Below, in pieces: positions 3,222-58,032 of a DNA stretch of 58,032 bases. The DNA comes from a virus, in IMG/VR virus record IMGVR_UViG_3300013947_000006, positions 1-58,032 of that record; one strand, 5' to 3'. The first letter of the stretch is position 1. Every line of letters begins with the position of its first letter. Made by a program: the position numbers and the translations under genes. The notes under the pieces were generated by a model that saw only the letters and a list, made by a program, of their open reading frames with translations, made no database searches and was not told the DNA's origin.

Positions 3222-3229
3222 ACCTCTAA

Positions 3230-6019: not shown

Positions 6020-6035
6020 AGAAAGGTAGAGAATT

Positions 6036-6608
6036 ATGGGCAAGAGTCGTAACACGAGGATGTACGGCACTTATCCGTCTGAAACATTTAAGGAGCACGG
6101 TCAACTCTTTCGTCGCTGTGTATTTTGCGGCGAGGTAAAGCCTATTACAGACTTTCCTCGTAATGGCACAGATAAGAAAGGCCGTCCTGAATGGAGACAG
6201 GATTGTAAGTGCTGCTACAATATCCGTAGGAAAGAAAACAGAACAAAGAAGAAGCACTCTGACTTTATTGGTGGACAGAAACGCCGTGGTGAGGAAAATC
6301 CAGAGTTCACTCATCAGGAGTGGAAAGAAGCATTGATTTTCTTCGGCGGAGAATGTGCTTATTGCGGATGCACTCCGCGTAAGGGTCAGCGAATGACTCG
6401 TGACCACCTTGAACCGGTTAGCGAGGGTGGTCGTACCATTCAGAGTAACATCGTACCGGCATGCCAGTCATGTAACAGCTCTAAAGGTGCTGAGGACTTC
6501 AAAGACTGGTTTATGAAGCAGCCATTCTTTAGTCAGGAGAGACTTAACAGAATATTTAAGTGGCGCACTATTATCCGACAGGTAGAAGGAGGTGTTAAGA
6601 ATGATTAG
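6036..6608 (+). CDS. HNH endonuclease (packaging-associated)
   Basis: CAYCG...DHLEPVSEGGRTIQSNIVPACQSCNSSKG HNH motif; N-terminal CVFCGEVKP...CKCCY zinc ribbon; sits between terS and terL. Confidence 0.85.
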   Translation: MGKSRNTRMYGTYPSETFKEHGQLFRRCVFCGEVKPITDFPRNGTDKKGRPEWRQDCKCCYNIRRKENRTKKKHSDFIGGQKRRGEENPEFTHQEWKEALIFFGGECAYCGCTPRKGQRMTRDHLEPVSEGGRTIQSNIVPACQSCNSSKGAEDFKDWFMKQPFFSQERLNRIFKWRTIIRQVEGGVKND

Positions 6609-6924
6609 TATTACTGCTGAAGCATTATCTCAGCTGGTAGTTGCGGTCGGTGCCTTGGCATTTATCGTATCTGTTATCACTGAGGTCGTTAAAAGCATTG
6701 GTGCTATGAAGAAGGTGCCTACTGACATTGTAGTTCTTGCATTGTCTATGGTTCTTACCGTAGTAGCATTTCTTGCTTATGCACAGTATGCATCTATTGC
6801 TATTGTGTGGTACTGGGTTGTAGCGGCTATTATTTGTGGCTTCTTCGTAGCATTCATTGCTATGTATGGTTGGAGCAAGCTCAGCGAGCTTTGGACCCGA
6901 TTTAATCCGAATAACAAAGAGTAA
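6601..6924 (+). CDS. Holin-like membrane protein (107 aa, three TM segments)
   Basis: GAAGGAGG ~9 nt before ATG 6601; three hydrophobic helices; EVVKSIGAMKKVPTDIVVLAL resembles the K/P loop of A118-type holins (by eye). Confidence 0.5.
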   Translation: MISITAEALSQLVVAVGALAFIVSVITEVVKSIGAMKKVPTDIVVLALSMVLTVVAFLAYAQYASIAIVWYWVVAAIICGFFVAFIAMYGWSKLSELWTRFNPNNKE

Positions 6925-6938
6925 GGAGGTAATGGGTC

Positions 6939-8306: not shown

Positions 8307-8311
8307 TAAGA

Positions 8312-9703
8312 ATGCAAAATGGTAAAAAGCCTGTAAACTTTAAGCAATTAGGTACTACAGGCCTTAGACGATATGGCCCGTACGTTTATGAAGAGTTCAT
8401 ACCAGAGTTACGTTGGCCATATGCAGGTAAAGTTTATCAGGAAATGGCCGATAATGACCCAGTTATTGGTGCTATTCTGTACTTAGCTGAAATGCTTATA
8501 AGGGGAACTACATGGTCAGTAGAGCCTGCTAGTACTTCTGAAGCAGATGTTGAAGCGGCTAATTTCCTTAAAAGTTGCATGGATGATATGGATATGTCCT
8601 GGGCAAACACTATCTCTGAAATTTTGTCTATGCTTACGTATGGTTTCAGCTTTCATGAGATTGTGTACAAAGTTAGGCGAGGGCCCAACGAGACTAGTTC
8701 TAGATACAAGAGTAAGTACTCTGATGGTCGTATCGGATGGAGGCGCTTACCTATACGAGCACAAACGTCTCTTCATGAATGGACATTCAATGACGAAGGT
8801 GACGTTGTAGCTTTTGTGCAGATGGCTGAACCTGACTTTAAGATTGTATCTATACCTATGTCAAAGGGTTTACTATTTAGAACACGCATTAGTAGAGACA
8901 ATCCTGAAGGTAAATCTTTACTGCGTAATGCCTACAGACCTTGGTTCTTCAAAAAGCACTTTGAGGAGATTGAGGGTATCGGTATTGAGCGAGACCTTGC
9001 AGGTTTTCCTGTACTCAAGGCTCCACAAGACATGGACCTTTGGAATGATGAGGATGAAAGAATGGTTGCTCTAAGAAATAGAGCAGAGGAGCTTGTATCA
9101 TCTGTGCGCAGGGACAGTGAAGAGGGTATTTTGCTTCCATACGGATGGGAACTAGACTTGCTTTCGTCAGGTTCGTCTAGACAGATAAATATTGGTGAAA
9201 CTATTGACAGGTATGACAATAGAATTGCTATTACTATGCTTTCAGATATTATCTTAATTGGTAATAATAAGGCAGGTTCTTTCGCTTTGGCAGATACTAA
9301 GCAATCTATGCTCGCGGCTGCTCTACAAGCACAGCTGCAGAATATTGCTGATGTATTTAATAACAAGGCTGTTCCGGATTTGTTTAACTACAATTATTTT
9401 CCGAACATTACAGACTTCCCTAAGATTGTACCTGGCCAAATACAGACTCCGTCTCTTAAGGAACTTGCACTTGTACTTCGTGCTATGGGTCTTAATATAG
9501 CAGGAGACATGAAGTTACAAAACTATCTGCGTCACATTCTCGGCATGCCAGACCTTGACCAAGAAACGTTTGAAAGCGTCTATCAGGGTCAAACAAGTGC
9601 TAAAAATAATAACGCTGATAATGATACGGATAATTTGGATGATACTGCGGAGAACGACTTTGAACAGAATGATTTAAGCTACACAGGAAGTGGAGGTGAA
9701 TGA
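8312..9703 (+). CDS. Portal protein
   Basis: 463 aa immediately after terL and before the prohead protease; TAGGAGG 8 nt before ATG 8312; acidic C-terminal tail. Confidence 0.8.
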   Translation: MQNGKKPVNFKQLGTTGLRRYGPYVYEEFIPELRWPYAGKVYQEMADNDPVIGAILYLAEMLIRGTTWSVEPASTSEADVEAANFLKSCMDDMDMSWANTISEILSMLTYGFSFHEIVYKVRRGPNETSSRYKSKYSDGRIGWRRLPIRAQTSLHEWTFNDEGDVVAFVQMAEPDFKIVSIPMSKGLLFRTRISRDNPEGKSLLRNAYRPWFFKKHFEEIEGIGIERDLAGFPVLKAPQDMDLWNDEDERMVALRNRAEELVSSVRRDSEEGILLPYGWELDLLSSGSSRQINIGETIDRYDNRIAITMLSDIILIGNNKAGSFALADTKQSMLAAALQAQLQNIADVFNNKAVPDLFNYNYFPNITDFPKIVPGQIQTPSLKELALVLRAMGLNIAGDMKLQNYLRHILGMPDLDQETFESVYQGQTSAKNNNADNDTDNLDDTAENDFEQNDLSYTGSGGE

Positions 9704-10253: not shown

Positions 10254-10284
10254 CCAAACGACGTATAATATAAATAGGGGGTGT
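10254..10284 (+). promoter_or_regulatory. Late-type promoter/leader box 2 (upstream of scaffold)
   Basis: GCCAAACGACGTATAATATAAATAGGGGGTG; -10 at 10265-10270; -35 position TTATAC. Confidence 0.55.
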
Positions 10285-16121: not shown

Positions 16122-19100
16122 ATGGCTAGCTTTGCAAATTTGACTGCAAACTTAAATCTTAATATTCAAAACTTTGCAAGCAACATGCGAAGAGCTTCTA
16201 GCTTAGCAAACCAGTTTTCTGCCAACCTTAGAGGTCAGATTAACGGAGGAATGGTGGAGCCTGCTAAGAAGTCTAAGTTTGAGTTCAAAGATGTAGCTCG
16301 TATCGTTCAAGGTATTATGATTTCTAAAGTGTTCTACGGAGGATTGAATGCTATTAGAAGTGCTACTGATGCAGTCTGGGAATTTAGCCAGGAACTTGAG
16401 TATGCAAAGATTGCTTACTCTAACTTATTTGGTGACACTGCCCTAGCTGACGAATTCATCAATGTACTTAAGGACTTTGCGGCTAAAACGCCGTTCTCTT
16501 TCCAAGAGTCTGAAGCTGCGGCTAAGCGATTACTAGCATATGGTATTCAGTACAAGAACGTCATGTATGTAATGAATGGTGTTCTTGCTGCTTCATCTAT
16601 GCAGGGTAATCCACAAACAATTGAGTCCGTTTCAAGAGCTCTCGGTCAGATTTACACTAAGGGTAAATTGATGAACGAGGAAATGAGGCAGTTAGCTGAA
16701 GCAGGTATTCCTGCTTATGAAATCTTGCAGGAAAAGTTAGGACTTACTCAGAAGCAATTATCTGAGATTGGTAAACTTAACATTCCAGCAAGCACTGCAA
16801 TCAATGCTCTTGTAGATGGTATGACAGAACGTTTTGGAGGTGTTGTAGATGCTTCCTCTAAAACGCTTAAGGGTATCATCAGTAATATCAAAGACAATGC
16901 CAGCATGCTCTTCGCTGGCGTATTCGAGCCTTTAACGGTGTGGCTTAAGTCCGCCTTAAATGCTCTTGGAGAGTTCTTGTATAAGATGCGAGAAATCTTC
17001 GAACTTAAGGGCGTTGGAGGTGTGTTTGAAGCACTCTTCCCACCTGAACTACATGAAACACTGAGAATGTTTGTAGCTAATCTTGGTAATCTATTCCAAG
17101 CAGTTGTTAGAGTAGCAGCTGCTCTTGGTGGCTTACTGAGACCGGTACTTGAAGCACTAATTAGAGTATTTAATGCTTTTGCGCCTATTCTTACGACAGT
17201 ACTTAATGTATTGTCTGTTATGGTATCTTGGATTACGCATAATGCAACGGCTATGAAAATCCTTACAGCTGCTCTTGCAGCAGCTGCGGCGATGTGGGTA
17301 GTCTTTAAGGTGAAGGCAATAGCTACGTCTGTAGTTGCTGGAGTTATTACGCTAATCTCCAAAGCGCTTGCCGGGTTATCTGCAATGCTTACCTTCGTCG
17401 CTGCACATCCGTTCTGGTCATTGCTTATTGCTCTTACAGGATTGGTTGTAGGTCTCTCTGGTGGCTTTGGAAAGTTAAGTAACGCAATCAGTGGTATGTT
17501 CAAGAAAGTAACAGCTATCAATGGTATGGACCCTGATAAGATACTGCTACCATCACAGAAGGAAAGAGCTAATGACTTAAACAAGTTTAATGAAGCTCTT
17601 GATACCACTAAAGATAACATGGACGACTTAGCAGACTCTACTGGTAAAGCTACTAAGGCCGCTAAAGGTCTGCTTTCATTTGATGAAGTATTCAAGCTCA
17701 ACCAGCCTGATGAAGGCACTAAGAAAGGAGCTAATTCTGATACTGGCTTTGACTTAAATATTCCAGATATGTCCGGTATAGATGCTAGTACGTTCATTCC
17801 GGAAGTACCAAGCTTTGAGGGCTTTGCAGACAACTTCGTAACAAAAATGACGAAAGCTCTTAAGGATAAATTTGCAGCGGCAGGTCTTGGAGCTATCCTT
17901 GGAGCTATCCTTGGAGGCCTTATAGGTGGCCCTCTTGGAGCGAAGATAGGAGCTGTTGCTGGGGCTATCGCTGGACTGCTCTGGAATGCTATAGCTGATA
18001 AGCTTGGCCTTGGTCCTGAAGAGAAAAAGAAAGCAGCCATTACAATGGGTATAGGCACTGCTCTTGGAGCGATTCTAGGAGGCATCCTTGGTGGTCCGGC
18101 TGGAGCAAAAATTGGGGCAGTCATTGGAACATTGGCAGGTGGTATTTGGGGACTGATTGCGCAAGCGCTTGGTGTCACAGACGCTCAGCAGTATGTATCT
18201 TTAGCTGGCGCAGCTTTTTCAGGTTTCTTTGCTGCAATCGCTAAGTACATTATGGGTAGCACTGTTGTAGAAACTCTCAATAGTGCAGGTGAGTATGTCT
18301 TTTCAGGATTTGCACATGCGGCTGGCAGCAGTCTAAAAGATTGCTTAAAGACAGGTGTTATCGGTGCTATTGTTAGCCTAGGTGTTGGCCTACTCTCTAA
18401 TGCCTTATCTGCTTGGCTTAAGACAGAATTTGACTTAACAGACCAAGATATAAAGAATGGCTCAGTAGGTCAGTCTATAGGTAACATAATCGGTTCTATC
18501 ACAGGACTCATCCTTGGAGGACCTATTGGCTCTATTGTAGGTGGAGCTCTTGGTCAACTTGCAGGTACTATTGTAGGCGACTTCTGGTCTTACTTGAGTA
18601 CTACCCTTAAGGGCTCCATCATAGGTGGTACAGCTGGTTTGCCTATAGGAGCTTTAATAGGTACTATCTGTGGCTCTATTGGAGGTCCTCTTGGTGCAGC
18701 GCTCGGTGCTGTAGTTGGAGCAGCCTTAGGAGGCTTAATAGGTCTTATAGTAGAGCATTGGGAGCCTATAAAAGAATGGTTTACAAGTGCTGGAGAGAGC
18801 ATTGCAAGCTTTTTCTCTGGACTAGGTAAAAAGTTCAGCGAAGCTGGTAAAAGCATTTCCGGATTTTTCTCTGGTGTACAGCAAACTTTATCCGGAGTAG
18901 TTGGGGGTATCACTGGTACTCTTAGCAGTGTCTGGACATCTATATCTACAAGCGTGTCTCAATGGTTTGCACCGATTGGACAGTTCTTTACAGATGTAGC
19001 CACAGGAGTTGCAACATTTGCTTCTGACTTATGGACAGGTATCACAACGGTCTTTAGTGACCTTGTCACTGCTATCGGAACATTTATGTCTGATATATGG

Positions 19101-20255
19101 ACGGCTATTACAACAGTATGGAATGATATTGTTACAGCTATCGGAACTGTGATGGGTGACATCTGGACGGCTATTACAACGGTATGGAATGATATTTCTA
19201 CTGCAGTATCTACTGTATGTACGACTATATGGACAACTATTTCTAACATCTTTGGGTTCATTAAGGACCTGATTGTTAAAGTTGTAACTGACATATGGAA
19301 CGCTATCGTTCAATGGTTCACGCCTATTGCAGAAGAGATTGGTAGAGTATGCTCCGAAGCTTGGACAGCAGTTTCTACTTGGTTCCAAAGTATTCTTACC
19401 ACTATAACAGAAAAAGTAACAGCTGCTTGGACAGCAGTTTCTACTTGGTTCCAGAGTATATGGACCACCATTTCAGAGAAGCTTTCCGGTGCATGGCAAA
19501 CTGTTACTAAGTTCTTTGGTGATATTCTTACCACTATCACAGGTAAGGTAAAGGAAGCTTGGACAGCTGTTTCTACTTGGTTCCAAAATATTTGGAATGT
19601 AATAAAAGAAAAGATTTCTGGAGCGTATAGCTCCGTTAAGTCTTACTTTGGAGACATTTACACATCCATTAAGACGAAGGTATCTGACTCTTACAATTCT
19701 GTAAAGACTTTCTTTGGTAACATGTATAGTACCATGAAAGAAAAGATTGGCAGCATGTATACCACAGTAAAGAATGGCATAAGTAACATCTACCATGCCT
19801 TTACAGGCTGGATTTCTGACCTGTGGAATAATGTGTTCGGCAAATTCTTTGGTTGGATAAATGATGGTATCACTAAGCTCAGAGAATTCTTTGGTCTTAA
19901 TGATAAAGCTAAGAGCACTGATACAAGCTACACAAGCAATAACAGTAGTAGTCCTAAAGCAGGTCACGCTACTGGTGGTGTTTTCAACAGAGAACACATT
20001 GCAAGATTTGCTGAGGGTAATAAAGCAGAAGCGGTTATTCCTCTTGAGAATGCCGGAGCAATGCAGCCCTTTGTAGATGCTGTTGCTAATGGTATCACTG
20101 CTAGCTTAATGCCTATTGTAGCTAATATCTCTGGTAATCAGGGACAGTTACAGCCACTATACGTTGGAACGTTAATTGCAGATGAAAGGAGCCTGAAAGA
20201 GCTTAACCGTAAGATGCAAGTTATTCAGCTTCAAGAGAATAAGAGGAGGGGTTAG
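16122..20255 (+). CDS. Tape measure protein
   Basis: 1377 aa, the longest ORF; glycine-zipper hydrophobic segments (GAILGGLIGGPLGAKIGAV repeated); ~11- and ~20-residue W/F-periodic repeats; follows G/GT. Confidence 0.92.
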   Translation: MASFANLTANLNLNIQNFASNMRRASSLANQFSANLRGQINGGMVEPAKKSKFEFKDVARIVQGIMISKVFYGGLNAIRSATDAVWEFSQELEYAKIAYSNLFGDTALADEFINVLKDFAAKTPFSFQESEAAAKRLLAYGIQYKNVMYVMNGVLAASSMQGNPQTIESVSRALGQIYTKGKLMNEEMRQLAEAGIPAYEILQEKLGLTQKQLSEIGKLNIPASTAINALVDGMTERFGGVVDASSKTLKGIISNIKDNASMLFAGVFEPLTVWLKSALNALGEFLYKMREIFELKGVGGVFEALFPPELHETLRMFVANLGNLFQAVVRVAAALGGLLRPVLEALIRVFNAFAPILTTVLNVLSVMVSWITHNATAMKILTAALAAAAAMWVVFKVKAIATSVVAGVITLISKALAGLSAMLTFVAAHPFWSLLIALTGLVVGLSGGFGKLSNAISGMFKKVTAINGMDPDKILLPSQKERANDLNKFNEALDTTKDNMDDLADSTGKATKAAKGLLSFDEVFKLNQPDEGTKKGANSDTGFDLNIPDMSGIDASTFIPEVPSFEGFADNFVTKMTKALKDKFAAAGLGAILGAILGGLIGGPLGAKIGAVAGAIAGLLWNAIADKLGLGPEEKKKAAITMGIGTALGAILGGILGGPAGAKIGAVIGTLAGGIWGLIAQALGVTDAQQYVSLAGAAFSGFFAAIAKYIMGSTVVETLNSAGEYVFSGFAHAAGSSLKDCLKTGVIGAIVSLGVGLLSNALSAWLKTEFDLTDQDIKNGSVGQSIGNIIGSITGLILGGPIGSIVGGALGQLAGTIVGDFWSYLSTTLKGSIIGGTAGLPIGALIGTICGSIGGPLGAALGAVVGAALGGLIGLIVEHWEPIKEWFTSAGESIASFFSGLGKKFSEAGKSISGFFSGVQQTLSGVVGGITGTLSSVWTSISTSVSQWFAPIGQFFTDVATGVATFASDLWTGITTVFSDLVTAIGTFMSDIWTAITTVWNDIVTAIGTVMGDIWTAITTVWNDISTAVSTVCTTIWTTISNIFGFIKDLIVKVVTDIWNAIVQWFTPIAEEIGRVCSEAWTAVSTWFQSILTTITEKVTAAWTAVSTWFQSIWTTISEKLSGAWQTVTKFFGDILTTITGKVKEAWTAVSTWFQNIWNVIKEKISGAYSSVKSYFGDIYTSIKTKVSDSYNSVKTFFGNMYSTMKEKIGSMYTTVKNGISNIYHAFTGWISDLWNNVFGKFFGWINDGITKLREFFGLNDKAKSTDTSYTSNNSSSPKAGHATGGVFNREHIARFAEGNKAEAVIPLENAGAMQPFVDAVANGITASLMPIVANISGNQGQLQPLYVGTLIADERSLKELNRKMQVIQLQENKRRG

Positions 20256-29149: not shown

Positions 29150-29395
29150 TAAAAATAGGGAATATATATAAGGAAATAAATATAAATAAGAAAAAAGCCC
29201 AAATATCAATATTCAATCAAATTATCTTATTTTTTAACTTTCTTAACATTCTTAACCTTCTTAACTTTTTGGCAACTTTTGTTCGGTTTTCAATTTTCAT
29301 TTTGAAAAACTTAAAAACAAATCCTTATAGACGAGTTTCGAGGGAGTACGTCAAAAAGTTAGGAAGGTTAAGAAAGTTGAGATGTTAAGAAAATG
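29150..29395 (+). repeat. AT-rich iteron element, copy 1 (inverted arms of 9-bp TTCTTAAC units)
   Basis: Left arm ~29231-29271 (TTTTTAACt TTCTTAACa TTCTTAACc TTCTTAACt). Right arm 29352-29392 is its imperfect reverse complement. ~80-bp A/T spacer. Homologous to 56965-57325 in the opposite orientation. Confidence 0.85.
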
Positions 29396-33012: not shown

Positions 33013-33579
33013 ATGCAGGATGACATCAATGCTACGATAGCCAAGCATCTTGGTCTTATCTTTAAGCAGCTTAATAAGTTCAATCTTGCTAAGGACCCTG
33101 AAGCAGAGAGTATTGGTTATGAGGCGCTTTACAATGCAATATTAACGTATGACCAAAACAAGAAAGTACGATTTTCTACATACGCTTCAGTGTGTATCTA
33201 CAATGCTTTGGGGTCATACGTAAGAACACAAAACAAACAGCGCCAGTTAGAAGTAATCTCTTACAACAATGTTGCTTACTCAGAAGATGGCACAGACCAT
33301 GAGTTTGTAGATTTTCTTTCAACACCTTCTGATGTAGAGCAGGACTTTATGAAGAAAGAACTACACAGGATTGTAAGGGAAGAATTTCAGAAACAGTATG
33401 ATACACTGACAAATAAGAAGCACCAAGTTATCATATCACTGTGGCGCGACTCAGAATATGAGGCTTCCATGGTATCGATAGCGAAACAAGCAGGCGTTTC
33501 TCAACCATATGTCAGTCAAGTCATAAATAGCTTCAAATTTAATTTAAGAAAGAAACTGGAGGAGCATTACTATGATTGA
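33013..33579 (+). CDS. Sigma-70 family RNA polymerase sigma factor (regions 2 and 4 only)
   Basis: Region 2-like YEALYNAILTYDQNKKVRFSTYASVCIYNAL; region 4 HTH SIAKQAGVSQPYVSQVINSF; 188 aa. Confidence 0.8.
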   Translation: MQDDINATIAKHLGLIFKQLNKFNLAKDPEAESIGYEALYNAILTYDQNKKVRFSTYASVCIYNALGSYVRTQNKQRQLEVISYNNVAYSEDGTDHEFVDFLSTPSDVEQDFMKKELHRIVREEFQKQYDTLTNKKHQVIISLWRDSEYEASMVSIAKQAGVSQPYVSQVINSFKFNLRKKLEEHYYD

Positions 33580-40719: not shown

Positions 40720-41712
40720 ATGGATATTTTGAAGTATCTTCCTAACTGTACTGTGTTCTCTACAGTTAAACAGGAAGACGATGAAGAAGGCTGGCTTAAG
40801 GCCAGAACAAGAGGTATAGGCGGTTCTGACGTAGGGGCCATCTGTGGAGTAAGCCCGTTCACATCTGCTCGTCAGATTTACCTTAATAAGACAGGTCAGT
40901 TTCAGGATGCTCTAAAGCCTAATGAAGCGGCAAAGGAACGTATGCACTTTGGCCATATGCTTGAGCCTATTGTAGCGGATGAATACTCACAGCGTACAGG
41001 CAATAAGGTCATTGCAGTAAATGCTACACTGGTACATAAAGATTATCCGTGGGCATTAGCAAACGTTGACAGACTTATTGTAGATGACGATGGAAGACCA
41101 GTAGGTATTCTTGAGTGTAAAACTACAAGCGAGTACATGAATGAAGAGTGGGAGTCGGGCGAAATTCTGATGTCTTACGTCTATCAGCTTAACTGGTACT
41201 TATGGATTTTGGGCTTAGAGAAAGGTGCATTTGCATGCCTGGTTGGTGGAAATAAGTTCTATTATTATGATGTGTTCAGAAATGACGAACTGCTTGAGAA
41301 TACTATTATTCCTGCAGCGAAGAAGTTCTGGTTTGAAAATGTGCTGGCACTCAAAGAACCTGAAATGCAGTCGACAGACACTGAATTTGCAAACAGTATC
41401 TACGGTACAGTCGTAAAGAACTCTGAGATTACTTTGCCGGATGACGAGACTAATGAGCTTGCCCGTACAGTGTTTGATTGTAAAGCAAAGATTAAAGAGC
41501 TCGAAAAGATTATGGCTGAGGCACAGAACCGTATTAAGGACCGTCTGCAGGATAATGAGATTGGTTATACTAAAGACTACACCATTAAGTGGTCGCCTCG
41601 CTCACAGAACCGAGTGGACACAGAAAAGCTCAAGACTGAATTTCCTGAAGTCTATGCTCAGGTTCAGAAGAAGATTGAGTTTAGGGCTATGTATGTGAAA
41701 GGAGTGCAGTAA
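40720..41712 (+). CDS. YqaJ/lambda Exo-like recombination exonuclease (PD-(D/E)XK)
   Basis: N-terminal RTRGIGGSDVGAICGVSPFTSARQIY block; DRLIV...ILECKT catalytic pattern. Confidence 0.8.
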   Translation: MDILKYLPNCTVFSTVKQEDDEEGWLKARTRGIGGSDVGAICGVSPFTSARQIYLNKTGQFQDALKPNEAAKERMHFGHMLEPIVADEYSQRTGNKVIAVNATLVHKDYPWALANVDRLIVDDDGRPVGILECKTTSEYMNEEWESGEILMSYVYQLNWYLWILGLEKGAFACLVGGNKFYYYDVFRNDELLENTIIPAAKKFWFENVLALKEPEMQSTDTEFANSIYGTVVKNSEITLPDDETNELARTVFDCKAKIKELEKIMAEAQNRIKDRLQDNEIGYTKDYTIKWSPRSQNRVDTEKLKTEFPEVYAQVQKKIEFRAMYVKGVQ

Positions 41713-42119
41713 TGAAAATTAAGCTTATTGACTTTGGCTATAAGAATGCACCAAGCAGAAAGCATGAGAATGATGCAGGTGCTGATGTACACTCTATGAA
41801 GAGGGTTGTAGTTTTTCCGCATACAACAGAAAAGATTCCACTTGGCTTTGGTCTGGAATTACCTGACGGATATGCGGCATATGTATTTCCGCGTAGTGGT
41901 TTATCTTCTAAAGGAATTGTATGTGAGCTGCCACCAATTGACTCTGGCTACAGAGGTGAGGTGCACGCTATCGTATCTAACGTATCTGATGAGCCTTATC
42001 AGGTAGAAGAGGGAGACCGCATTGGCCAGCTGGTTATTATGCCAGTAGTTATTGCAGATTTTATTGATTATGACATTAAAGAACGCGGCGATGGCGCATT
42101 TGCATCGACCGGTAAATAG
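41712..42119 (+). CDS. dut: dUTP diphosphatase
   Basis: All five dUTPase motifs: AGADV, PRSGLSSKG, IDSGYRGE, GDRIGQLVI, RGDGAFASTGK. Confidence 0.92.
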   Translation: MKIKLIDFGYKNAPSRKHENDAGADVHSMKRVVVFPHTTEKIPLGFGLELPDGYAAYVFPRSGLSSKGIVCELPPIDSGYRGEVHAIVSNVSDEPYQVEEGDRIGQLVIMPVVIADFIDYDIKERGDGAFASTGK

Positions 42120-42131
42120 GAGGATAAGAAT

Positions 42132-42317
42132 ATGGCAGGAGCAATTAAACATATGGAGCGTAGCCACCGCGCTACAGCAGCAAAGAGAAACTCAGGAACA
42201 TTCAATCATTTCTACAGAAATGCCTATGCAACAGGTGTTGCTAGACAGCAGAAAAAGATGACCTTTGGACAGCACCTTAAGAATATGCTGAAACGTGCAG
42301 CAGGAAAGGAGTCTTAA
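42132..42317 (+). CDS. Hypothetical basic protein (61 aa)
   Basis: TAGGAGG RBS; ORF track. Confidence 0.55.
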   Translation: MAGAIKHMERSHRATAAKRNSGTFNHFYRNAYATGVARQQKKMTFGQHLKNMLKRAAGKES

Positions 42318-42319
42318 TC

Positions 42320-42592
42320 ATGGCAGAGAATAAAATTTCTTGTACAGTCGAAATGGACGGTAAATCTACAACCTCTGACGATTTTGTAGCTATCCTGTCC
42401 AAAGAAAACGGAGACGCTTCTATCTTCTATAATACTGATGCACTCACGCTTGGTATGGCCATGAAGATGGTTGCTAGAGCTTTTGTGGAGTGCATGAATG
42501 AATGCACTGAACAGGAGCGTGCAGAAATCACAGATGTATTAGGCGCAGCGTTTGTTGCAGATAAACCTGTAGAGGAGGGTCAGCATGCGTAA
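42320..42592 (+). CDS. Hypothetical acidic protein (90 aa)
   Basis: ORF track; tightly packed in the operon. Confidence 0.6.
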   Translation: MAENKISCTVEMDGKSTTSDDFVAILSKENGDASIFYNTDALTLGMAMKMVARAFVECMNECTEQERAEITDVLGAAFVADKPVEEGQHA

Positions 42593-43439
42593 CATTGAAG
42601 TAGCAGTACTTAATGAAGCTCATGATTGTCCGGCAGGTATGATGATGTTTTTGGCCAAGCTTACACAGCGCGGCCATAGCATTCATTGCATGGATGATTT
42701 GTTGAAGCTTTATAATGAGTCTATTGGACATCACAAAACAGCAGTAAGCGTTGCTAATCTGCCTCATGGAACGATTAAGAGATTTACACCTATCACAGTC
42801 GCAATCGTTGGTGCATCTCGCCGTTTTCTTGCACAGGCTAGAACGCACCAGGTTGGTTTTAACTATGTATCTGCCTCATTGCAGTATAGTGACTATACAG
42901 GCAAAGCCGACTATGTAGTTCCATATGCTATTATAAAGGCAGATTATGAAGGCAATCGTTGCGCATACGAGTTTGCTGCTGAAAGTAAAACTTCTGTAAA
43001 TGAAGAGAACCTGGACATCTACACCAAGCTTTACTTGAATAGCTGTGCAGACTCTATGGAGACTTATAGAGAACTTGCTGAAGCAACAGATAATGATACA
43101 GCTGGTTATGCTGCGCCGCAGGGCCTGCGCAACATCTTGATTATGCAGGCTAACCATGAAGCTTGGATGCACTTCATTAGACTGCGTGGTTGCAACAGAA
43201 ACACCGTCGAAACACAGTATGTTACAATGCGCATTTGGGAAGAGCTCTTGAAGACATCTGATGGTGATGAGATGCTTCACTTTGCCGGACCTGACTGTAT
43301 GTATGGTATGTGCAGAGAGGGTAAGATGAGTTGTGGTGAACCACTCAAGAAATATGTAGATAAGCATAAGGCTACTGGCGTATCAGTTCCTAGACTGATT
43401 ATTGATGACAGATGGCCATTATTGAAGGAGGTACAGTAA
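42585..43439 (+). CDS. thyX: ThyX-family (flavin-dependent thymidylate synthase-like) protein with a divergent signature motif
   Basis: Alignable by eye to ThyX: ...ASRRFLAQARTHQVGFNYVSASLQYS (vs RQxxRHRxxSxNxxSxRY) and NHEAWMHFIRLRG...ETQY (vs NARSLxNFxxLR...AQxEI). Confidence 0.6.
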   Translation: MRNIEVAVLNEAHDCPAGMMMFLAKLTQRGHSIHCMDDLLKLYNESIGHHKTAVSVANLPHGTIKRFTPITVAIVGASRRFLAQARTHQVGFNYVSASLQYSDYTGKADYVVPYAIIKADYEGNRCAYEFAAESKTSVNEENLDIYTKLYLNSCADSMETYRELAEATDNDTAGYAAPQGLRNILIMQANHEAWMHFIRLRGCNRNTVETQYVTMRIWEELLKTSDGDEMLHFAGPDCMYGMCREGKMSCGEPLKKYVDKHKATGVSVPRLIIDDRWPLLKEVQ

Positions 43440-43440
43440 T

Positions 43441-43758
43441 ATGTATAAGAACAGAGAAGAATTACTTAAAGAATTAGAAGGTGCGAAAGTTGACAGAGAC
43501 GATGCACTTGCAAGTGCTGAAAACTCTAAGAAGCGTATCGAGCAGTTACATGCTGAGCTTGAAGAGTATAAGCAGCGTGATTGTATGAAAGCAGAGTTTG
43601 ACAAGGGTGCTAATCAGATTAAGATGCTCTACGATAGCTTTGTAGATGCTGGTTTCACTGCTGAGCAGGCTTTCGGTATTATCACAGCTATTCTTCCTGC
43701 AATGTTCAATCCGGCACAGGCTCCAAGTGTTGACAGACTTTTAAGAGTGTTACTGTAA
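43441..43758 (+). CDS. Hypothetical coiled-coil protein (105 aa)
   Basis: ORF track; TAATATG junction. Confidence 0.6.
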   Translation: MYKNREELLKELEGAKVDRDDALASAENSKKRIEQLHAELEEYKQRDCMKAEFDKGANQIKMLYDSFVDAGFTAEQAFGIITAILPAMFNPAQAPSVDRLLRVLL

Positions 43759-43970
43759 TGCAGTTTGAAGATGCCTTAAGAGAAGTAAAAGCTGGTAAAG
43801 GCATGCAACTACCTCAGTGGAGCCCTGAGGTAGTCATAAGATGTCAAGTGCCTGATGAGCATAGCAAAATGACTTCTCCTTATTTGTATGTGGACAGTCG
43901 CTTTGGCAGAGTGCCTTGGCGTGAAACATTTCCAGAGATGTTCGATTGTAGATGGGAGGTAGTAGAATGA
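43758..43970 (+). CDS. DUF2829-like protein (Tad2-like candidate)
   Basis: MQFEDALREVKAGKGMQLPQW ... VPWRETFPEMFDCRWEVVE follows the DUF2829 pattern (FxxALxxxKxGK ... PW ... DW.iv). Confidence 0.6.
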   Translation: MQFEDALREVKAGKGMQLPQWSPEVVIRCQVPDEHSKMTSPYLYVDSRFGRVPWRETFPEMFDCRWEVVE

Positions 43971-44428
43971 TTATAATCATTGAAGGACCTGATGGATCAG
44001 GTAAGACTACTCTTGCCGAGAAATTTTCAAAGCAGACAAAGTATCCTATCATTCATCGAAGTCAGCCAAAGACTGACGAAGAAAAGAAACTGATGATGGG
44101 TGAGTATCTACAAACTATCCGTTCTGGTAAGAACATGATTTTTGATAGATGCTGGTATTCAGAAATGGCATATGGTCCGGTTATGCGAGACGCTTCTGTT
44201 ATTAGCTATCCAGAGATGTATGAGCTTGAAGAACAGTTGGCCAAATGTGGTGCAATCATTATTTATGCTACAGGCCCTAAGGCTGCCTTATGGCAAAGAT
44301 GCCAGAAGCGTGGTGAAGACTACATAACTTCAAGAGATGACTTTAATGCTATCTGTGAAAATTTTGACAGGCTTATGAAAGTCCCTCATCATATCCCTGT
44401 AGTAAGATATGAATACAAAGACCTGTAA
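43967..44428 (+). CDS. Thymidylate kinase-like dNMP kinase
   Basis: P-loop IIIIEGPDGSGKTTLA, DRCWYSE block; GGGAGG 7 nt before ATG 43967 (ATGA overlap). Confidence 0.7.
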   Translation: MIIIIEGPDGSGKTTLAEKFSKQTKYPIIHRSQPKTDEEKKLMMGEYLQTIRSGKNMIFDRCWYSEMAYGPVMRDASVISYPEMYELEEQLAKCGAIIIYATGPKAALWQRCQKRGEDYITSRDDFNAICENFDRLMKVPHHIPVVRYEYKDL

Positions 44429-45020
44429 GGGTTGTGGCTGGGTATATCCTCTGATTACTCCGTATTCGACTTGTCGCTTTTGCGGCAGGTCGTTTACGGA
44501 GGGTATTTGTAATATGTGCAAAAAACCTTCTGATGATATAATTCCAGGAACTAAACTGTGTAGGAAATGCTATAATAAGCGCAATGGCATTTATCAGAAG
44601 AGGGTTGTACGCACAACTGATGATAATCAGAAGTATTACAGACGTTTGTGTAAAGAGGCTGATGAACGCTTCGCCGCTTGGACAGAGCGACTTAAGAGCA
44701 TAACTACACATACTCTTACAGAAGATGAATGGATGGAATGTTGTAGATACTTTAACGGATGCGCCCTGTGTAGCAGCGACCAAATAGATGCTAGAGGTTA
44801 CTTTATACGCTTTGAAGATGGTGGCAAGTATAATGCTTGCAATGTTATTCCATTATGTGACAAGTGCGCCACAGCATTAAAAGTACAAACAAATCCATTT
44901 AGGCAAATGAACCCGACAATAAATAGAAACCTAGCAACCAGCAGAGGTTACTCAAAGGAGAAGCTTGAAAAGGTTGCAGAATATCTACAAAGCAAGATGG
45001 GAGGTGTAGATAATGAATAG
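44409..45020 (+). CDS. Cys-rich zinc-ribbon protein with degenerate HNH-like C-terminus
   Basis: CKGCG...CRFCG, CNMCK...CRKCY, then CALCSS...GGKYNACNVIPLCDKC (HNH-like layout, His not evident). Start uncertain. Confidence 0.5.
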   Translation: MNTKTCKGCGWVYPLITPYSTCRFCGRSFTEGICNMCKKPSDDIIPGTKLCRKCYNKRNGIYQKRVVRTTDDNQKYYRRLCKEADERFAAWTERLKSITTHTLTEDEWMECCRYFNGCALCSSDQIDARGYFIRFEDGGKYNACNVIPLCDKCATALKVQTNPFRQMNPTINRNLATSRGYSKEKLEKVAEYLQSKMGGVDNE

Positions 45021-45417
45021 TCAAGCTAGAATGGCTGTATTCAAAGACTTTACGAATAACCTGGCAACTTTATCCAAATGCTCTGAGCGTCATGTAGCCG
45101 CTATCATTACCGATAAAGATTTGACACAGGTGTACAGTATAGGTATCAATGGTGGTCCTAAAGGACTTGCTGACTGCATGTGCATTATTGATGGAAAGTA
45201 TGGATGTGTTCATGCAGAGGTAAATGCTCTTATCAAGTGCAGAACGGATAGTCCTGATAAAGTAATGTTTGTAACTCTTTCACCATGCAAGCAATGTGCT
45301 GCAGCTATCATAAATGCGCCTGGTGGTTTCTCAGCTGTCTACTATTTTGAGGAATGGAAAGATGACTCAGGTATTAAGTTATTAAAAGCCGCCGGAATAC
45401 ATGTAGCACGTATATAA
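45013..45417 (+). CDS. dCMP deaminase
   Basis: Zinc motifs HAEVNAL and PCKQCA; 134 aa. Confidence 0.85.
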   Translation: MNSQARMAVFKDFTNNLATLSKCSERHVAAIITDKDLTQVYSIGINGGPKGLADCMCIIDGKYGCVHAEVNALIKCRTDSPDKVMFVTLSPCKQCAAAIINAPGGFSAVYYFEEWKDDSGIKLLKAAGIHVARI

Positions 45418-54832: not shown

Positions 54833-55915
54833 ATGTCAAAGATTGAGTTAACACTTGCCCCTACTTATGTACCTAGCTGGACATGCGTAGATGCTATTCG
54901 TGAATTATTTCAGAACGCCCTTGACCAGGAGGCGCAAAATCCTGAGAACAAAGCAAACTGGGAATACCATGATGACACGCATGAGCTTGTCATCAGTAAT
55001 GCAAAGTCTAAGCTCGAGGCCGCATCGCTGCTGCTTGGTCAGACATCAAAGGCTGGCGACAAATCTACAATCGGCCAGTTTGGTGAGGGTTACAAGATTG
55101 CGACGTTAGTATTGCTGCGTGAAGGCAAGAACGTTGTATTCTACAACTACGGCATCAAAGAGATATGGCGCCCACGCTTTGTTAAGTCTCGTAGATTTGG
55201 TACCTCTATCCTGACATTCTTCACCGAGAAGAAACCTGTCTGGGAGCGCGTACAATCTGCAGACCTTGAGATTGTGATTGAGGGCATCACGCCTGAAGAA
55301 TACTGTAAAGAAATCGTACCTTCAAATTTGCACCTTCGTACTGACTACAAAGTGCTTGAAGAAACTGAGTATGGCAATGTCATTGACTTACCCGGCAAAG
55401 TGTTTGTTAACGGTTTGTTTGTTTGCGACTACGAGCCATACACGTATGGTTACGACTTCAAGCCTGAGAACATCCGCCTGGACCGTGACCGTAAGATGGT
55501 TAGTGACTTTGACCTTCGTTGGATGGCATCAAAGATGTGGAGCACCTGCAAGGACACTGACAAGGTACTCGAGATGATTGTAGATGGTAAGGCTGATGTT
55601 GCTTTCCTTGATAGTGTAAGTTACACATCAAGCTGGCGTGACCTCGCCGCTGAGAAGTTCAAGAGCGTGTATGGTCCAGAAGCAATCCCAGTAACCAGTC
55701 AAGAAGAACTCGACAAGGTGCCTACAGGTTACAAAGGTGTTGTAGTTAGTGAGAACTACAGCTCATTAGTCAGAGGAAGCTCAAGCTTCGTAATGCCAGC
55801 GCCCGACGACCACTCGCCGGTTGATGACCTACAGGACTGGTATGACAGCATCAAGCATAAACTTGATAGTGACGAGCAGGAGCAGTTCGAAGCTATCATG
55901 GAGGGCTTACGATAG
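54833..55915 (+). CDS. GHKL-superfamily (Hsp90/MORC/sacsin-like) ATPase
   Basis: Bergerat N-box IRELFQNALDQ and glycine box IGQFGEGYKIATL; 360 aa. Confidence 0.65.
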   Translation: MSKIELTLAPTYVPSWTCVDAIRELFQNALDQEAQNPENKANWEYHDDTHELVISNAKSKLEAASLLLGQTSKAGDKSTIGQFGEGYKIATLVLLREGKNVVFYNYGIKEIWRPRFVKSRRFGTSILTFFTEKKPVWERVQSADLEIVIEGITPEEYCKEIVPSNLHLRTDYKVLEETEYGNVIDLPGKVFVNGLFVCDYEPYTYGYDFKPENIRLDRDRKMVSDFDLRWMASKMWSTCKDTDKVLEMIVDGKADVAFLDSVSYTSSWRDLAAEKFKSVYGPEAIPVTSQEELDKVPTGYKGVVVSENYSSLVRGSSSFVMPAPDDHSPVDDLQDWYDSIKHKLDSDEQEQFEAIMEGLR

Positions 55916-56628: not shown

Positions 56629-56661
56629 AGGACCCGGAATAATATCCGGGTCCTTTGTTAT
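56629..56661. terminator. Bidirectional terminator between the rightward operon and leftward gene 56909..56658
   Basis: aggacccgga-ataata-tccgggtcct 10-bp stem followed by ttgttatt. Confidence 0.75.
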
Positions 56662-56909
56662 TGCAAATCTCTTGGTACTTTGTAACCTTTCTCTTTGAGC
56701 TTCAGGTACTCATCTACAATCTGCTCAAGCTTGACTTGGCGCTTGAGCCTAAAGTCAGACTTCTGTAAAGACTTGTAATTACTATACTTTGCATATCTTT
56801 TTCCACAATCTACACATCTGTCCGTATACTTGACATGTGCTTCACAATTCAGTTTACCACAAAACATGCATTTGCCTATCAGTATGTTTGAATGTTTCAT
56901 GCTAATCAC
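56658..56909 (-). CDS. Zinc-ribbon protein (83 aa)
   Basis: AGGAGGTG RBS; CMFCGKLNCEAH...CVDCGKRY. Confidence 0.7.
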   Translation of the reverse strand: MISMKHSNILIGKCMFCGKLNCEAHVKYTDRCVDCGKRYAKYSNYKSLQKSDFRLKRQVKLEQIVDEYLKLKEKGYKVPRDLQ

Positions 56910-56937
56910 CTCCTAATTATATTATACGCTGCTTGGA
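56907..56937 (-). promoter_or_regulatory. Late-type promoter/leader box 3 (minus strand)
   Basis: Minus strand reads TCCAAGCAGCGTATAATATAATTAGGAGGTG, the same box as at 5159 and 10254. Confidence 0.55.
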
Positions 56938-56964
56938 TAATAAATATGGCCTTATTTTCTAACA

Positions 56965-57325
56965 AATATTATTTTCTTAACATTCTTAACATTCTCAACC
57001 TTTTGACGTACTCCCACTATTCGACCATCTATATAAAAACAAAAAATAAAATTTGTTTTTGTGTCGGTGAAATAAAATATGGGGTTGTCAAAAGGTTGAG
57101 AATGTTAAGAATGTTAAGAAAATTAAAAAGTTGAGAAAATGTAAGGATGTTGGGCTGTGACTATGCTAGAATGCTACACAGTGTCACTGCGCCCCGGTGC
57201 TGGTAACTACTAGACTGTTCAAAAGTGGTAAGAACTACAGAATATTGAAAAAATTTGAAATTGGGCCAAAACTATTTATTATTTATATCCTTATATATAT
57301 CTTTATTTTTTCAAATTTTGTACTG
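56965..57325 (-). repeat. AT-rich iteron element, copy 2 (inverted relative to copy 1; carries a ~100-bp insertion)
   Basis: Perfect 36-bp inverted arms 56972-57007 / 57087-57122 (ttttcttaacattcttaacattctcaaccttttgac), 79-bp A/T spacer. TTTTGACGTACTCCC (57001) is the reverse complement of 29342-29356; TCCTTATATATAT (57288) is the reverse complement of 29162-29174. Confidence 0.85.
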
Positions 57326-57361
57326 GAAGGAAAGAATATGAAGTCTTCTGAATCTATGTAG

Positions 57362-57390
57362 GTTTCACACGTTCGTGATACACATATAAT
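57362..57390 (+). promoter_or_regulatory. Candidate weak promoter facing GC-rich block D
   Basis: GTTTCA-17 nt-TATAAT; the spacer contains the CACGTTCGTG dyad box. Confidence 0.35.
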
Positions 57391-57399
57391 TATACAACG

Positions 57400-58032
57400 C
57401 CGTGATGCATGCGAACAGCATAAAATCCGCCAGGCCTGACGTCGCTCGGGTCGACGCGGCGATGAGTCCAGTGGACACAGAGTAGTTCTAGACTAGTCTT
57501 TCTAAGCCAAACAAGCTCCTGCACGGATACCAGACATTCTGACATACAGCGTCGCGGCGTCCCAGGGCTGAGTCGGGCAAGAGGATTGTAGATACTCAGG
57601 CAGTAAGTCACAGTGCCGCCCGGCCACGGCTCTACTTCGTAAAAAGAAGTGCAGCCACAGCCAGACGAAGCAAGGGTTTTAGCAGTGGTGGCGCAGCGGC
57701 GCATGGTCGCAGCAGCACTATTACAACTGGACCAGCACGGATACCAGGCTGAACCCACTTTGTGCAGCGCCGCCACGACCCTGACTGACCATAGCCGACA
57801 GGGGTTTTAGCCGCCGCATCCCGGCCTCCGTACGGCCGGAGCTGACGTCAGTTCTACAAGCTAGTAGATTATAGCTGGTCCAATCCAATCCTGTACCACG
57901 GCGGCCCGGGCCCACTTGCTTACGCGGAACTTGACTTCCACAAGCTAGTAGATGTCCCGGCCAGGCGGCGCTTGAGCCAGGCTGCACCAAAGGGCATAAC
58001 GAAACCCAGCTGGCTGACAAGACCAACTGGGT
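57400..58032 (+). repeat. GC-rich ORF-free repeat block D (continues into bases 1-46 across the junction)
   Basis: GGGTTTTAGC at 57674 and 57802; CAAGCTAGTAGAT at 57857 and 57941; GCACGGATACCAG at 57521 and 57735; palindrome AGACTAGTCT at 57490. Confidence 0.8.

Follow-up and report, generated by a model that had tools for sequence, protein, structure and literature searches.

Several families of short repeated elements have been described between the genes of bacteria and their mobile elements. The REP/BIME sequences of enterobacteria are GC-rich extragenic repeats, each an imperfect palindrome, which alternate in orientation and are associated with RAYT transposases, while arrays of the iteron/centromere type, such as sopC of F with its 12 copies of 43 bp, are built from tandem direct repeats. 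In T4-type phages, the promoter-early stem-loop (PeSL) elements are mobile regulatory cassettes (Arbiol et al. 2010, PMC2839356; Comeau et al. 2014, PMC4122927). In Cluster A mycobacteriophages, stoperators are single sites found across the whole temperate-phage genome and bound by the immunity repressor, the bound protein stopping the elongating RNA polymerase (PMC9283540, PMC6550527). The GC-rich block analyzed here (block A) appears to belong to a family comparable to the PeSL cassettes, with an array added to them. We favor, with modest confidence, the view that block A is one of a lineage-specific set of GC-rich repeat blocks in intergenic DNA, that it acts as a DNA-level boundary and recombination cassette, and that it is not a dedicated large RNA gene.

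Block A occupies positions 57400-57954 on the plus strand of the window, the whole stretch of 58,032 nucleotides that was analyzed, and consists of three degenerate repeat modules. Bases 1-78 of the window were found to be an exact duplicate of 57955-58032 (an assembly overlap), which reduces the block to about 0.56-0.63 kb, with a unique part of about 555 bp or about 630 bp when the closing hairpin is included. The original prediction had given it 0.7 kb by continuing it into positions 1-46, where the same DNA is counted twice. Its GC-richness holds, with 57.5% GC in 57400-57954 against 42.8% genome-wide, although the genome, which had been called AT-rich, is only moderately so. The remaining GC maxima of the genome are three sister blocks, B (1141-1440), C (2205-2410) and D (3225-3440). 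The block had also been described as the longest stretch devoid of open reading frames. It contains minus-strand frames of 128 and 101 amino acids, the frame and length of which are kept in none of 14 homologues, so that block A is non-coding even though it is not free of open reading frames. Purifying selection acts on block A as judged from its homologues, the identity in the block and at the 4-fold sites of the adjacent gene being 0.855 against 0.784, 0.864 against 0.816, 0.784 against 0.659 and 0.628 against 0.366.

The block is preceded by a promoter-like element on the plus strand (57362-57393), found by a consensus scan and consisting of TTTCAC, a 16-nt spacer and TATAAT at 57385-57390, in agreement with the candidate promoter proposed at 57362-57390. 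This candidate is conserved in the window (W) and in the related loci L002, L003 and L005, and L011 and L020 have a TATAAT. Inside the block, a remnant of a cassette terminator, GACGCGGCGATGAGTC (57453-57468, plus strand), has a 13-mer in common with the terminator at 2176-2193, from which GCGGCGATGAGTC had already been recognized as a shared sequence, and is without the 3' arm and the T-run; this terminator sequence also recurs between the cassettes of L092. It is followed by the 10-bp palindrome AGACTAGTCT (57490-57499), whose GACTAGT core also occurs in the closing boxes, and by the first copy of the closing box, GGATTGTAGATACTCA (57583-57598, plus strand), which aligns locally to the TAGTAGATAGTC boxes of blocks B, C and D. 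The first repeat unit has the core GGGTTTTAGCAGTGGTGGCGCAGC (57674-57697, plus strand), the columns of which are invariant in the 14 homologues, and the second, identified by repeat comparison, has the core GGGTTTTAGCCGCCGCATCCCGGC (57802-57825, plus strand). Between the two units lies an imperfect 15-bp GC-rich inverted repeat, GGTCGCAGCAGCACT and AGCGCCGCCACGACC (57705-57780), which encloses a conserved GCACGGATRCCAGGCTGA segment.

The ccggcc/ggccgg hairpin at 57821-57839 exists as predicted, but an overlapping small hairpin, CTCCG-TACGGC-CGGAG (57826-57841), suits the relatives better, with 95% of cells paired and two pairs changed on both sides; the segment carrying it is wholly deleted in L005. 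The second closing box, TCTACAAGCTAGTAGAT (57853-57869, plus strand), was found by motif search and local alignment, and the third, with its conserved leader, TTGCTTACGC...TTCCACAAGCTAGTAGAT (57917-57953, plus strand), by homologue alignment, where no other part of block A is as well conserved in distant relatives. The 78-bp duplicate (57955-58032) holds the GAGCCAGGCTG end of the block and a hairpin at 58004-58032 (equal to 50-78), a terminator-like stem common to block A and the convergent gene 109-867. A hairpin had been placed at 47-81 as the end of the block; it is present, at the slightly different position given here. The remaining repeats of the original prediction were all located, namely GGGTTTTAGC at 57674 and 57802, the exact 13-mer CAAGCTAGTAGAT at 57857 and 57941, and GCACGGATACCAG at 57521 and 57735. 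A repeated 13-mer of any kind occurred in only 3 of 2000 shuffles of block A, and the motifs of the block are real, far beyond chance.

The same motifs build all four blocks, as had been claimed, and the modules of block A match blocks B, C and D in local alignments (repeat families D1, D4, D5 and D9). In each block, units whose core is GGGTTTTAGC-S-GC-N-G are combined with a TCCACnnnCTAGTAGAT box that closes the block and with a GCTGAGGCTG-like end. The unit consensus is GyCAAGCyGrrGCTG-GGTTTTAGC-S-GC-N-G followed by a short variable stretch, the units stand in tandem with a length of 35-47 bp, and the last unit of a block contains the TCCACnnnCTAGTAGAT(AGTC) box and has GCTGAGGCTG as its end. 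Three units were found in block B (plus strand; box at 1389, GCTGAGGCTG at 1413), three in block C (plus strand; box at 2370, GCTGAGGCTG at 2394) and two in block D (plus strand; box at 3380). A total of ten exact copies of GGGTTTTAGC occur in the window, all of them on the plus strand and all within the four blocks. Allowing one mismatch raises the number to fifteen, compared with 3.1 expected, and none of 100 shuffles reached fifteen. The spacings between units (35/36, 40/41 and 45-47 bp) are not multiples of 3, which also speaks against a coding reading of block A, and they differ in steps of about 5 bp, so the sites do not all face the same side of the helix, which counts against the favored reading. 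The largest of the blocks, block A, resembles three degenerate modules fused without genes between them. It is therefore a copy of the repeat family, as the original prediction had offered as its alternative, while nothing marks it as the founding one.

The family extends to more than twenty related contigs with the same layout, in which a terminator is followed by tandem 35-47-bp units, the box, a sigma-70 promoter and a small gene of no known function. Its members comprise 14 viral contigs as well as metagenome contigs and a single contig of an Oscillospiraceae metagenome-assembled genome. A scan of the genome collection for the motif pair returned 89 matches, nearly all of them unrelated repeats or chance occurrences, with L092 and L084/L089 as the only family members, and a literature search for the 10-mer core returned only primers and unrelated sequences. 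In the related phages, the core is invariant across 130 distinct units. Its strand is that of terS in all 13 loci carrying both (15 loci were checked), even where the anchor gene, the counterpart of gene 109-867, is inverted (L007, L008, L010 and L013). On these alignments, the core 10-mer does not change and never leaves the terS strand. In distant relatives the motif is a different one (GCTTTTATGCGGCC, GCTTTTAGCCGC or an AT-rich 36-mer), with the architecture preserved.

These observations bear on the possibility that the blocks are functionless repeats which propagate themselves by slippage and unequal crossing-over and are tolerated in non-essential intergenic space. The number of units per block does range from one to nine, units were gained within block A of L149, and short flanking repeats were expanded in L135 and L139, all of which would be expected of such repeats. 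However, the core stays invariant where synonymous sites are saturated (4-fold identity of 0.37 in L005), the orientation is fixed, the distant relatives preserve the architecture while the motif differs, and the GC-rich composition is kept in relatives with seemingly more AT-rich coding sequence (by eye, in L089). We consider functionless repeats unlikely. An invariant 10-mer beside saturated synonymous sites points instead to a specific molecular partner. On reading locus L089, the blocks were seen to be GC-rich though its coding sequence looks markedly more AT-rich.

The placement of the blocks relative to transcription signals is similar to that of PeSLs, in which terminator and promoter cassettes are likewise repeated between small genes in a variable early region. 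In the window, terminators are predicted at 2176-2193, 2823-2854 and 3191-3214, and promoters at 2447-2475 and 2877-2905, each of the latter with 11 of 12 consensus matches and a TG; the terminator and promoter pair recurs in L020 and L092. Block C has the terminator at 2176-2193 on one side and the promoter at 2447-2475 on the other, block D follows the terminator at 3191-3214 at a convergent-gene junction, and block B is situated between divergent promoters. The genes at 1534-2166, 2507-2818 and 2970-3182 gave no PHROG or Pfam match. Across 15 loci, the presence of small genes between the anchor genes varies, the anchor gene, gp3884 and terS being found throughout, and block A is located at the left edge of this variable region, adjoining the conserved gene 109-867. 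L002 is without window positions 2379-3371, the crossover falling in 19 nt common to the boxes of blocks C and D, and in L003 and L004 the gene at 1534-2166 is replaced while pieces of the cassette are kept. Comparison of close relatives thus places the endpoints of gene gain, loss and replacement inside the blocks, which identifies them as recombination substrates, and indel and replacement endpoints likewise fall inside the cassettes in PeSLs. This recombination may be a consequence of repetition and not a selected function.

The stem-loop terminator and sigma-70-like promoter (both predicted), the variable region and the endpoints within cassettes are thus all found here as in PeSLs. Several differences were observed. 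Between terminator and promoter there is a GC-rich array of 100-350 bp, in which tandem units of about 40 bp are followed by a closing box, whereas PeSLs have no array; there is no sequence relation; the phage lineage is another one, that of an uncultured phage of about 58 kb from anaerobic habitats; and block A has only the terminator remnant, with no promoter or gene downstream. As no promoter follows block D either, an upstream-activating role cannot be general. With stoperators the blocks share a short asymmetric intergenic motif in many copies and one orientation relative to transcription, as the ten plus-strand copies show, but the sites here form tandem arrays confined to four early-region blocks and not dispersed over the genome, and no repressor-like protein was found among the proteins scanned. 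The REP/BIME elements are similarly GC-rich and clustered after genes and between transcription units, but the units here are direct and not palindromic, with hairpin z-scores of only -0.3 to -0.5, and no transposase was found among the proteins scanned.

The original prediction had proposed a structured non-coding RNA of about 0.7 kb, of the kind of GOLLD or ROOL. Like these, block A is a long GC-rich segment near tRNA-bearing phage DNA; unlike them, it matched no covariance model, whatever the threshold, and showed no global fold backed by covariation. At the gathering scores of Rfam 15, the whole window yielded only three tRNAs. No family matched region 56900-58032 even at E<=10, where there were only sub-threshold matches of hairpin type, mostly to the AT-rich inverted repeat at 56970-57125, and blocks B-D gave nothing relevant against Rfam. 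Folding of the homologues with RNAalifold gave a covariation term of +4.05 for seven sequences, and for the 14 homologues a consensus of 50 pairs over about 640 nt with -28 kcal/mol and a covariation term of +1.11, which is about zero or slightly penalizing. The 14-sequence alignment, most members of which are 80-90% identical and hence of limited power, has no covariation-supported global fold. Double or compensatory changes are restricted to two local hairpins, the small one at 57826-57841 and the shared terminator-like one at 58004-58032, where they affect three pairs. The 15-bp inverted repeat is perfect in L020, has four A.C mismatches in the window, is broken in L147 and shows compensatory changes at none of eight inner pairs. 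Around the core there is no covariation and the observed pairing equals expectation; the possible core hairpins (a terminator-like stem of GCCAAGC and GCTGGGT, and GGCT with AGCC) were rejected accordingly, the mutual information being dominated by register shifts. The nearest one-mismatch copy, GGGTATTAGC, found in the first bases of the phage tRNA-Ala gene, had suggested a tRNA-like 5' end, but in the unit sequences, as inspected, the likeness goes no further than UAGC.

A plus-strand RNA of about 0.6 kb, running from 57362-57393 to 58004-58032 as a structured or protein-sponging non-coding RNA with the GGGUUUUAGC motifs as functional sites, would nevertheless fit the promoter-like element kept in relatives, the closing hairpin with its compensatory changes, the purifying selection, the double changes in the internal hairpin and a single-sequence folding energy below that of shuffles (z of -2.9 and -2.4 on the two strands, from only 20 shuffles). 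Transcription of block A is possible given the conserved promoter-like element and the shared terminator around it. The reverse strand, however, folds about equally well, as expected of DNA palindromes; the inverted repeat has A.C mismatches on the plus strand in most sequences; large modules are deleted, duplicated or inserted between relatives; and the sister blocks, which share these motifs, follow terminators or separate divergent promoters, positions at which no transcript would be expected. Together with the lack of an Rfam match and of covariation, this leaves the structured-RNA reading of block A unsupported by comparative evidence, and we regard such an RNA as unlikely. The consensus fold of the minus strand is lower (-51 against -28 kcal/mol) and the mismatches of the inverted repeat become G.U pairs there. 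A minus-strand RNA was rejected, as minus-strand shuffles also fold lower and A/G polymorphisms are commoner than C/T ones (75 against 55).

The fixed strand of the motif raises another explanation, namely that the blocks are clusters of Chi-like sites protecting the concatemer from a host AddAB/RecBCD enzyme that moves leftward after the pac cut near terS, and serving as recombination hot spots. The enzyme would enter at the DNA end left unpackaged by the cut, and sites in the right orientation on the terS strand would turn it from degrading DNA to promoting recombination. Chi sites have an established orientation requirement relative to the entering enzyme, and the motif, which lies upstream of terS and invariably shares its strand, has the orientation needed for entry from the terS side. 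The breakpoints inside the blocks agree with this, as does the GCTGrGGCTGGG of the unit, which resembles the E. coli GCTGGTGG (the Chi of the host may differ), and AGCGG is present in about one third of the units. Yet when 46 plus-strand genes of the 51-kb gene body were compared with synonymous-codon shuffles, none of the 5-9-mers in the unit was commoner than expected, and no Chi-like enrichment was found there. In addition, the conserved core of 10-15 nt is longer than any known Chi, the arrays are scattered between early genes and do not form one guard cluster, and the phage encodes its own RecE-like exonuclease. We find this explanation improbable.

Iteron and centromere arrays such as sopC likewise consist of direct repeats in tandem, which recur every 40 bp or so around a strongly conserved core. 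Block A and the AT-rich inverted 9-bp arrays immediately upstream of it (56954-57140, 30.6% GC) could accordingly be taken for a replication origin or packaging region, with the units as iterons or as sites for an initiator or the small terminase, and several related contigs do break in or near block A. The arrays, however, lie in four separate places interleaved with early genes, their spacing is variable, and their copy number and placement vary freely between close relatives; no partition or initiator gene (Par or Rep) was found among the proteins scanned, and the replication genes are 30-50 kb away. Physical genome ends inside block A find no support either: judged by contig ends only, the near-complete related contigs stop at positions that bear no relation to one another, which is what circular or permuted assemblies would give. 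The large terminase is nearest in family to that of psiM2 (best match, 44% identical), which packages by a headful mechanism, and headful packaging needs no fixed ends. Of all the readings considered, an origin or packaging region seems to us the least probable.

In the variable early region, the blocks separate the terminator of one small gene from the promoter of the next. Under the favored reading of a boundary and recombination cassette, the invariant, strand-fixed core would be a multi-copy landing site for a sequence-specific factor of the phage or the host. The bound arrays would insulate early transcription units from their neighbors, perhaps by stopping polymerases that read through leaky terminators, and would also provide homology that shuffles the cassettes. 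No repressor-like, Rep or Par candidate for the binding factor was found among the proteins scanned, a scan that leaves the small proteins without known function unresolved. A bolder and more tentative proposal is that the GGGTTTTAGC arrays represent an undescribed phage cis-element, strand-fixed landing pads for one factor that act as a roadblock or insulator, or as a decoy in host takeover, and that drive cassette exchange. The factor might then be the helical protein encoded by 109-867, which would be abundant and early, or a host protein, and co-evolution with a binder would predict the change of motif under a preserved architecture in distant relatives. Once the blocks are recognized as repeat cassettes, they will not be mistaken in annotation for an RNA gene, for genome ends or for an array of CRISPR type. 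The blocks would also explain the turnover of the early gene set, the small genes of which are typical candidates for host takeover and anti-defense.

A CRISPR array was rejected as only some 8-10 bases vary within an entire period of 35-47 bp and no CRISPR direct-repeat family matched. A mimic of the Cas12a repeat was likewise discarded; its TCTAC-loop-GTAGAT stem is found in box 2 only, the other boxes have TCCAC or no arm, and the period is not that of CRISPR.

Neither integrase, repressor, Rep, Par nor transposase was found among the proteins scanned, so that the phage looks virulent, with no sign of a temperate or plasmid lifestyle. No nucleotide match was found in 50,697 phage records, and the anchor protein is absent from cultured relatives. 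Metagenomes of anaerobic digesters, fermentations and the gut commonly contain the lineage. The anchor protein itself, a conserved helical protein of 252 amino acids with no assigned function, is encoded on the minus strand (109-867), converges on block A in this lineage and anchors it in all relatives. It gave no Pfam, PHROG, PDB-sequence or Foldseek match, and its AlphaFold model gave no informative structural match. A total of 1576 database relatives of this protein were found, mostly on contigs of 1-3 kb, and these short contigs possibly reflect repeats that break the assemblies.

A total of ten copies of GGGTTTTAGC were found in the window, all on the plus strand and confined to four GC-rich blocks, namely block A (57400-57954, plus strand), block B (1141-1440), block C (2205-2410) and block D (3225-3440). 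Allowing one mismatch raises the count to 15 (3.1 expected), which no shuffle out of 100 attained. Block A has a GC content of 57.5% compared to 42.8% genome-wide, with comparable peaks only at the other three blocks, and it contains two pairs of repeated 13-mers, any such pair occurring in only three of 2000 block shuffles. The motifs listed in the original prediction were all found at their positions and the observation as a whole is real, save for an overlap that was counted twice. Bases 1-78 are an exact copy of bases 57955-58032 (a 78-bp terminal direct repeat); the proposed continuation of the block into 1-46 therefore counts one stretch of DNA twice, and the hairpin given as 47-81 is the one at 58004-58032 (= 50-78). 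The block had also been described as free of ORFs. Minus-strand ORFs of 128 and 101 aa do exist inside it, but neither frame nor length is kept in 14 homologues and the block is therefore considered non-coding.

The genome is about 57,954 bp long once the terminal overlap is counted once. The assembly is circular or permuted, and the contig junction inside block A is arbitrary; near-complete related contigs end at unrelated positions. The small and large terminase genes and the portal gene lie at 5195-9703, and the phage also encodes a DNA polymerase, primase-helicase, ligase, RecE-like exonuclease, sigma factor, anaerobic ribonucleotide reductase and several enzymes of nucleotide metabolism. 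The proteins scanned included no integrase or repressor, and 50,697 deposited phage genomes gave no nucleotide match. The best match of TerL, at 44% identity, is to Methanobacterium phage psiM2. Nearly all genes at 5195-56624 are on the plus strand. From about 56,900 through the junction to about 4,600 there are small genes on both strands without database matches, each served by a sigma-70-type promoter (TTTACA, 17 nt, TATAAT, with TG) and an intrinsic terminator of its own. The four blocks occupy gaps among these genes: block B is flanked by divergent promoters, block C has a terminator on one side and the next promoter on the other, and blocks D and A are located at convergent-gene junctions. 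Promoter segments are tandemly duplicated at 945-1028/1067-1150 (84 nt) and 4435-4495/4536-4596 (61 nt), giving two strong minus-strand sigma-70 promoters ahead of gene 109-867 and two ahead of the 3884-4399 operon.

Related contigs were located through the conserved protein of gene 109-867 (minus strand), which adjoins block A, and through the motif itself. The same layout recurs repeatedly in these contigs, with five parts in fixed order: an intrinsic terminator that is homologous among cassettes (GCGGCGGCGATGAGTCGCCG and then T's), from one to nine units in tandem, a last unit that carries TCCACnnnCTAGTAG(A/G)T and ends in GCTGAGGCTG, an AT-rich upstream element with a promoter, and a small gene. 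The consensus of 130 distinct units is GyCAAGCyGrrGCTG-GGTTTTAGC-S-GC-N-G, in which the core is essentially invariant, and the distances between the starts of successive units fall mainly at 35/36, 40/41 (the mode) and 45-47 bp. In more distant relatives the layout persists with the motif altered to GCTTTTATGCGGCC, GCTTTTAGCCGC or an AT-rich 36-bp unit. Block A contains a terminator remnant (57453-57468), three copies of the closing box that marks the last unit (57583, 57853 and 57936), two units (57674 and 57802) and a GAGCCAGGCTG end, and is best described as three degenerate modules fused with no genes in between. The suggestion that it belongs to a DNA repeat family was thus correct in substance. 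A motif scan of a genome collection returned mostly unrelated repeats, and a literature text search for the 10-mer returned unrelated uses only.

The other proposal, a structured RNA of about 0.7 kb, would fit the promoter-like element (TTTCAC, 16 nt, TATAAT) that is conserved just upstream of block A. At gathering thresholds, however, Rfam returned only three tRNAs in the window, and no meaningful match was obtained for block A at E<=10 or for blocks B-D. Block A folds better than shuffled sequence on both strands (z of -2.9 and -2.4, from 20 shuffles only), which is exactly what inverted repeats at the DNA level would yield. The consensus fold of seven homologues has a penalising covariation term (+4.05), and that of 14 homologues has 50 pairs over about 640 nt at -28 kcal/mol with a covariation term of +1.11. 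The reverse strand gives 81 pairs and -51 kcal/mol without covariation gain, in agreement with the generally lower shuffled energies of that strand. A global RNA fold is therefore not supported by these comparisons. When pairs were counted on named helices, the hairpin at 57826-57841 and the terminator hairpin were the only ones with compensatory changes. The arms 57705-57719 and 57766-57780 form a GC-rich inverted repeat of 15 bp, which pairs perfectly in the related contig L020, contains four A.C mismatches in the window and is disrupted in contig L147. Pairing in candidate stems around the unit core is no commoner than column composition predicts, and unit hairpins have a mean z of only -0.3 to -0.5. 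Among relatives, whole segments are deleted in L005, two extra units are inserted in L149 and 16 nt are duplicated in L004, and little transcription of the sister blocks is to be expected from the mapped promoters and terminators. Taken together, the Rfam, covariation, module turnover and siting results leave the structured RNA reading unsupported, with the conserved promoter-like element giving it a small probability.

Block A is nevertheless under constraint, with identities of 0.855, 0.864, 0.784 and 0.628 in four relatives versus 0.784, 0.816, 0.659 and 0.366 at 4-fold sites of the adjacent gene. The conservation is concentrated in islands of primary sequence (the unit cores, GTCGCGGCGGCG, GCAGCGCC and TTGCTTACGC...CTAGTAG). 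The blocks are also recombination substrates. Contig L002 matches the window colinearly from 56971 as far as 2379, where it skips to 3371 and so lacks the two genes at 2507-3182; the left side of its junction is block C and the right side block D, with the crossover within the common TCCAC...TAGTAGATAG box. In L003 and L004 the gene at 1534-2166 is replaced and cassette pieces are retained. Across 15 loci the protein of gene 109-867, gp3884 and terS are constant, and the small genes between them are variable. Directly after the block A homologue at L147:6100-7000 (a 57.8-kb fermentation-metagenome contig) come a late-type promoter and a zinc-finger gene in place of the anchor gene (the 109-867 homologue), so that the boundary of the block is rearranged.

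In all 13 loci having both the motif and terS (15 loci examined) the two share a strand, and this holds also in the four loci where the anchor gene has the opposite orientation to that in the window; the orientation of the motif therefore follows the genome axis and not the local gene. Chi-like sites would be oriented in this manner, but motif statistics in the gene body give no support for such a role. An origin or pac region is unlikely because the arrays are dispersed and freely varying, and no initiator or partition gene was found among the proteins scanned. The blocks are shown to be a DNA repeat and cassette system, in which the array is a putative multi-copy binding site. Its position straight after terminators fits that of an insulator, a role it might play. 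In Cluster A mycobacteriophages, protein bound to stoperators halts RNA polymerase (PMC9283540, PMC6550527), and the array motif, asymmetric and co-oriented, resembles these sites. The promoter-early stem-loop (PeSL) cassettes of T4-type phages have no counterpart to the GC-rich array, with its units of about 40 bp and invariant, strand-fixed 10-mer. The element is a variant of phage regulatory and recombination cassettes already known, to which the array component is added.

The anchor protein gave an all-helical model (mean pLDDT 76.5) with a strongly basic invariant centre (KSQQSKRSRAKSK...KSAGGARR), and no informative relative was found by structure or sequence. Its family has 1576 database relatives, unannotated and mostly on 1-3 kb contigs, possibly owing to flanking repeat blocks that break metagenome assemblies. 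Genuine arrays of the repeat family also occur next to AT-rich phage-like genes on short contigs filed as bacterial, two from Hymenobacter terricola 3F2 (contigs 176 and 175; L084 and L089) and one from an Oscillospiraceae MAG of roe deer colon (L092). Most likely these contigs are phage DNA that ended up binned or co-assembled with the bacterium, and they could give a hint of the host.

Several other elements were observed. An AT-rich structure occurs in two copies (56954-57140 and 29229-29394) that are 27.8 kb apart and roughly opposite on the genome. In each, about 80 bp are enclosed by arrays of a 9-bp repeat in inverted orientation (TTCTTAACA / GTTAAGAAT), the arms being 54 and 43 nt long. 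Relatives have an equivalent structure with other 9-mers, for example ATCTCAACA in L020, AAATGTGAC in L015 and GAATATTCA in L018; these arrays may serve as origin iterons or as operators bound by a regulator specific to the phage. Three copies of CCAAAC-N-ACGTATAATATAA-W-TAGG (5160-5184, plus; 10254-10283, plus; 56936-56907, minus) lie directly upstream of terS, the gene at 10290 and the minus-strand zinc-ribbon gene 56658-56909, and are probably a middle or late promoter with a ribosome-binding site; the phage sigma factor (33013-33579) might take part in reading it. The region 41712-45417 encodes a dUTPase, a thymidylate-synthase-like protein (284 aa, weak match), a nucleotide kinase and a dCMP deaminase, which may mean that the phage DNA contains a modified pyrimidine. 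For the 360-aa protein of 54833-55915, which is conserved beside the early region in relatives, the only match is to a PHROG family of unknown function; we take its N-terminal ELFQNALD motif to resemble GHKL-type ATPases. Finally, repeated GGAGC/CTTGG-type motifs of 12-nt periodicity at 17881-18742 lie within the 1377-aa gene 16122-20255, probably the tape-measure gene from its size and position, and are coding repeats unrelated to the GC-rich blocks.
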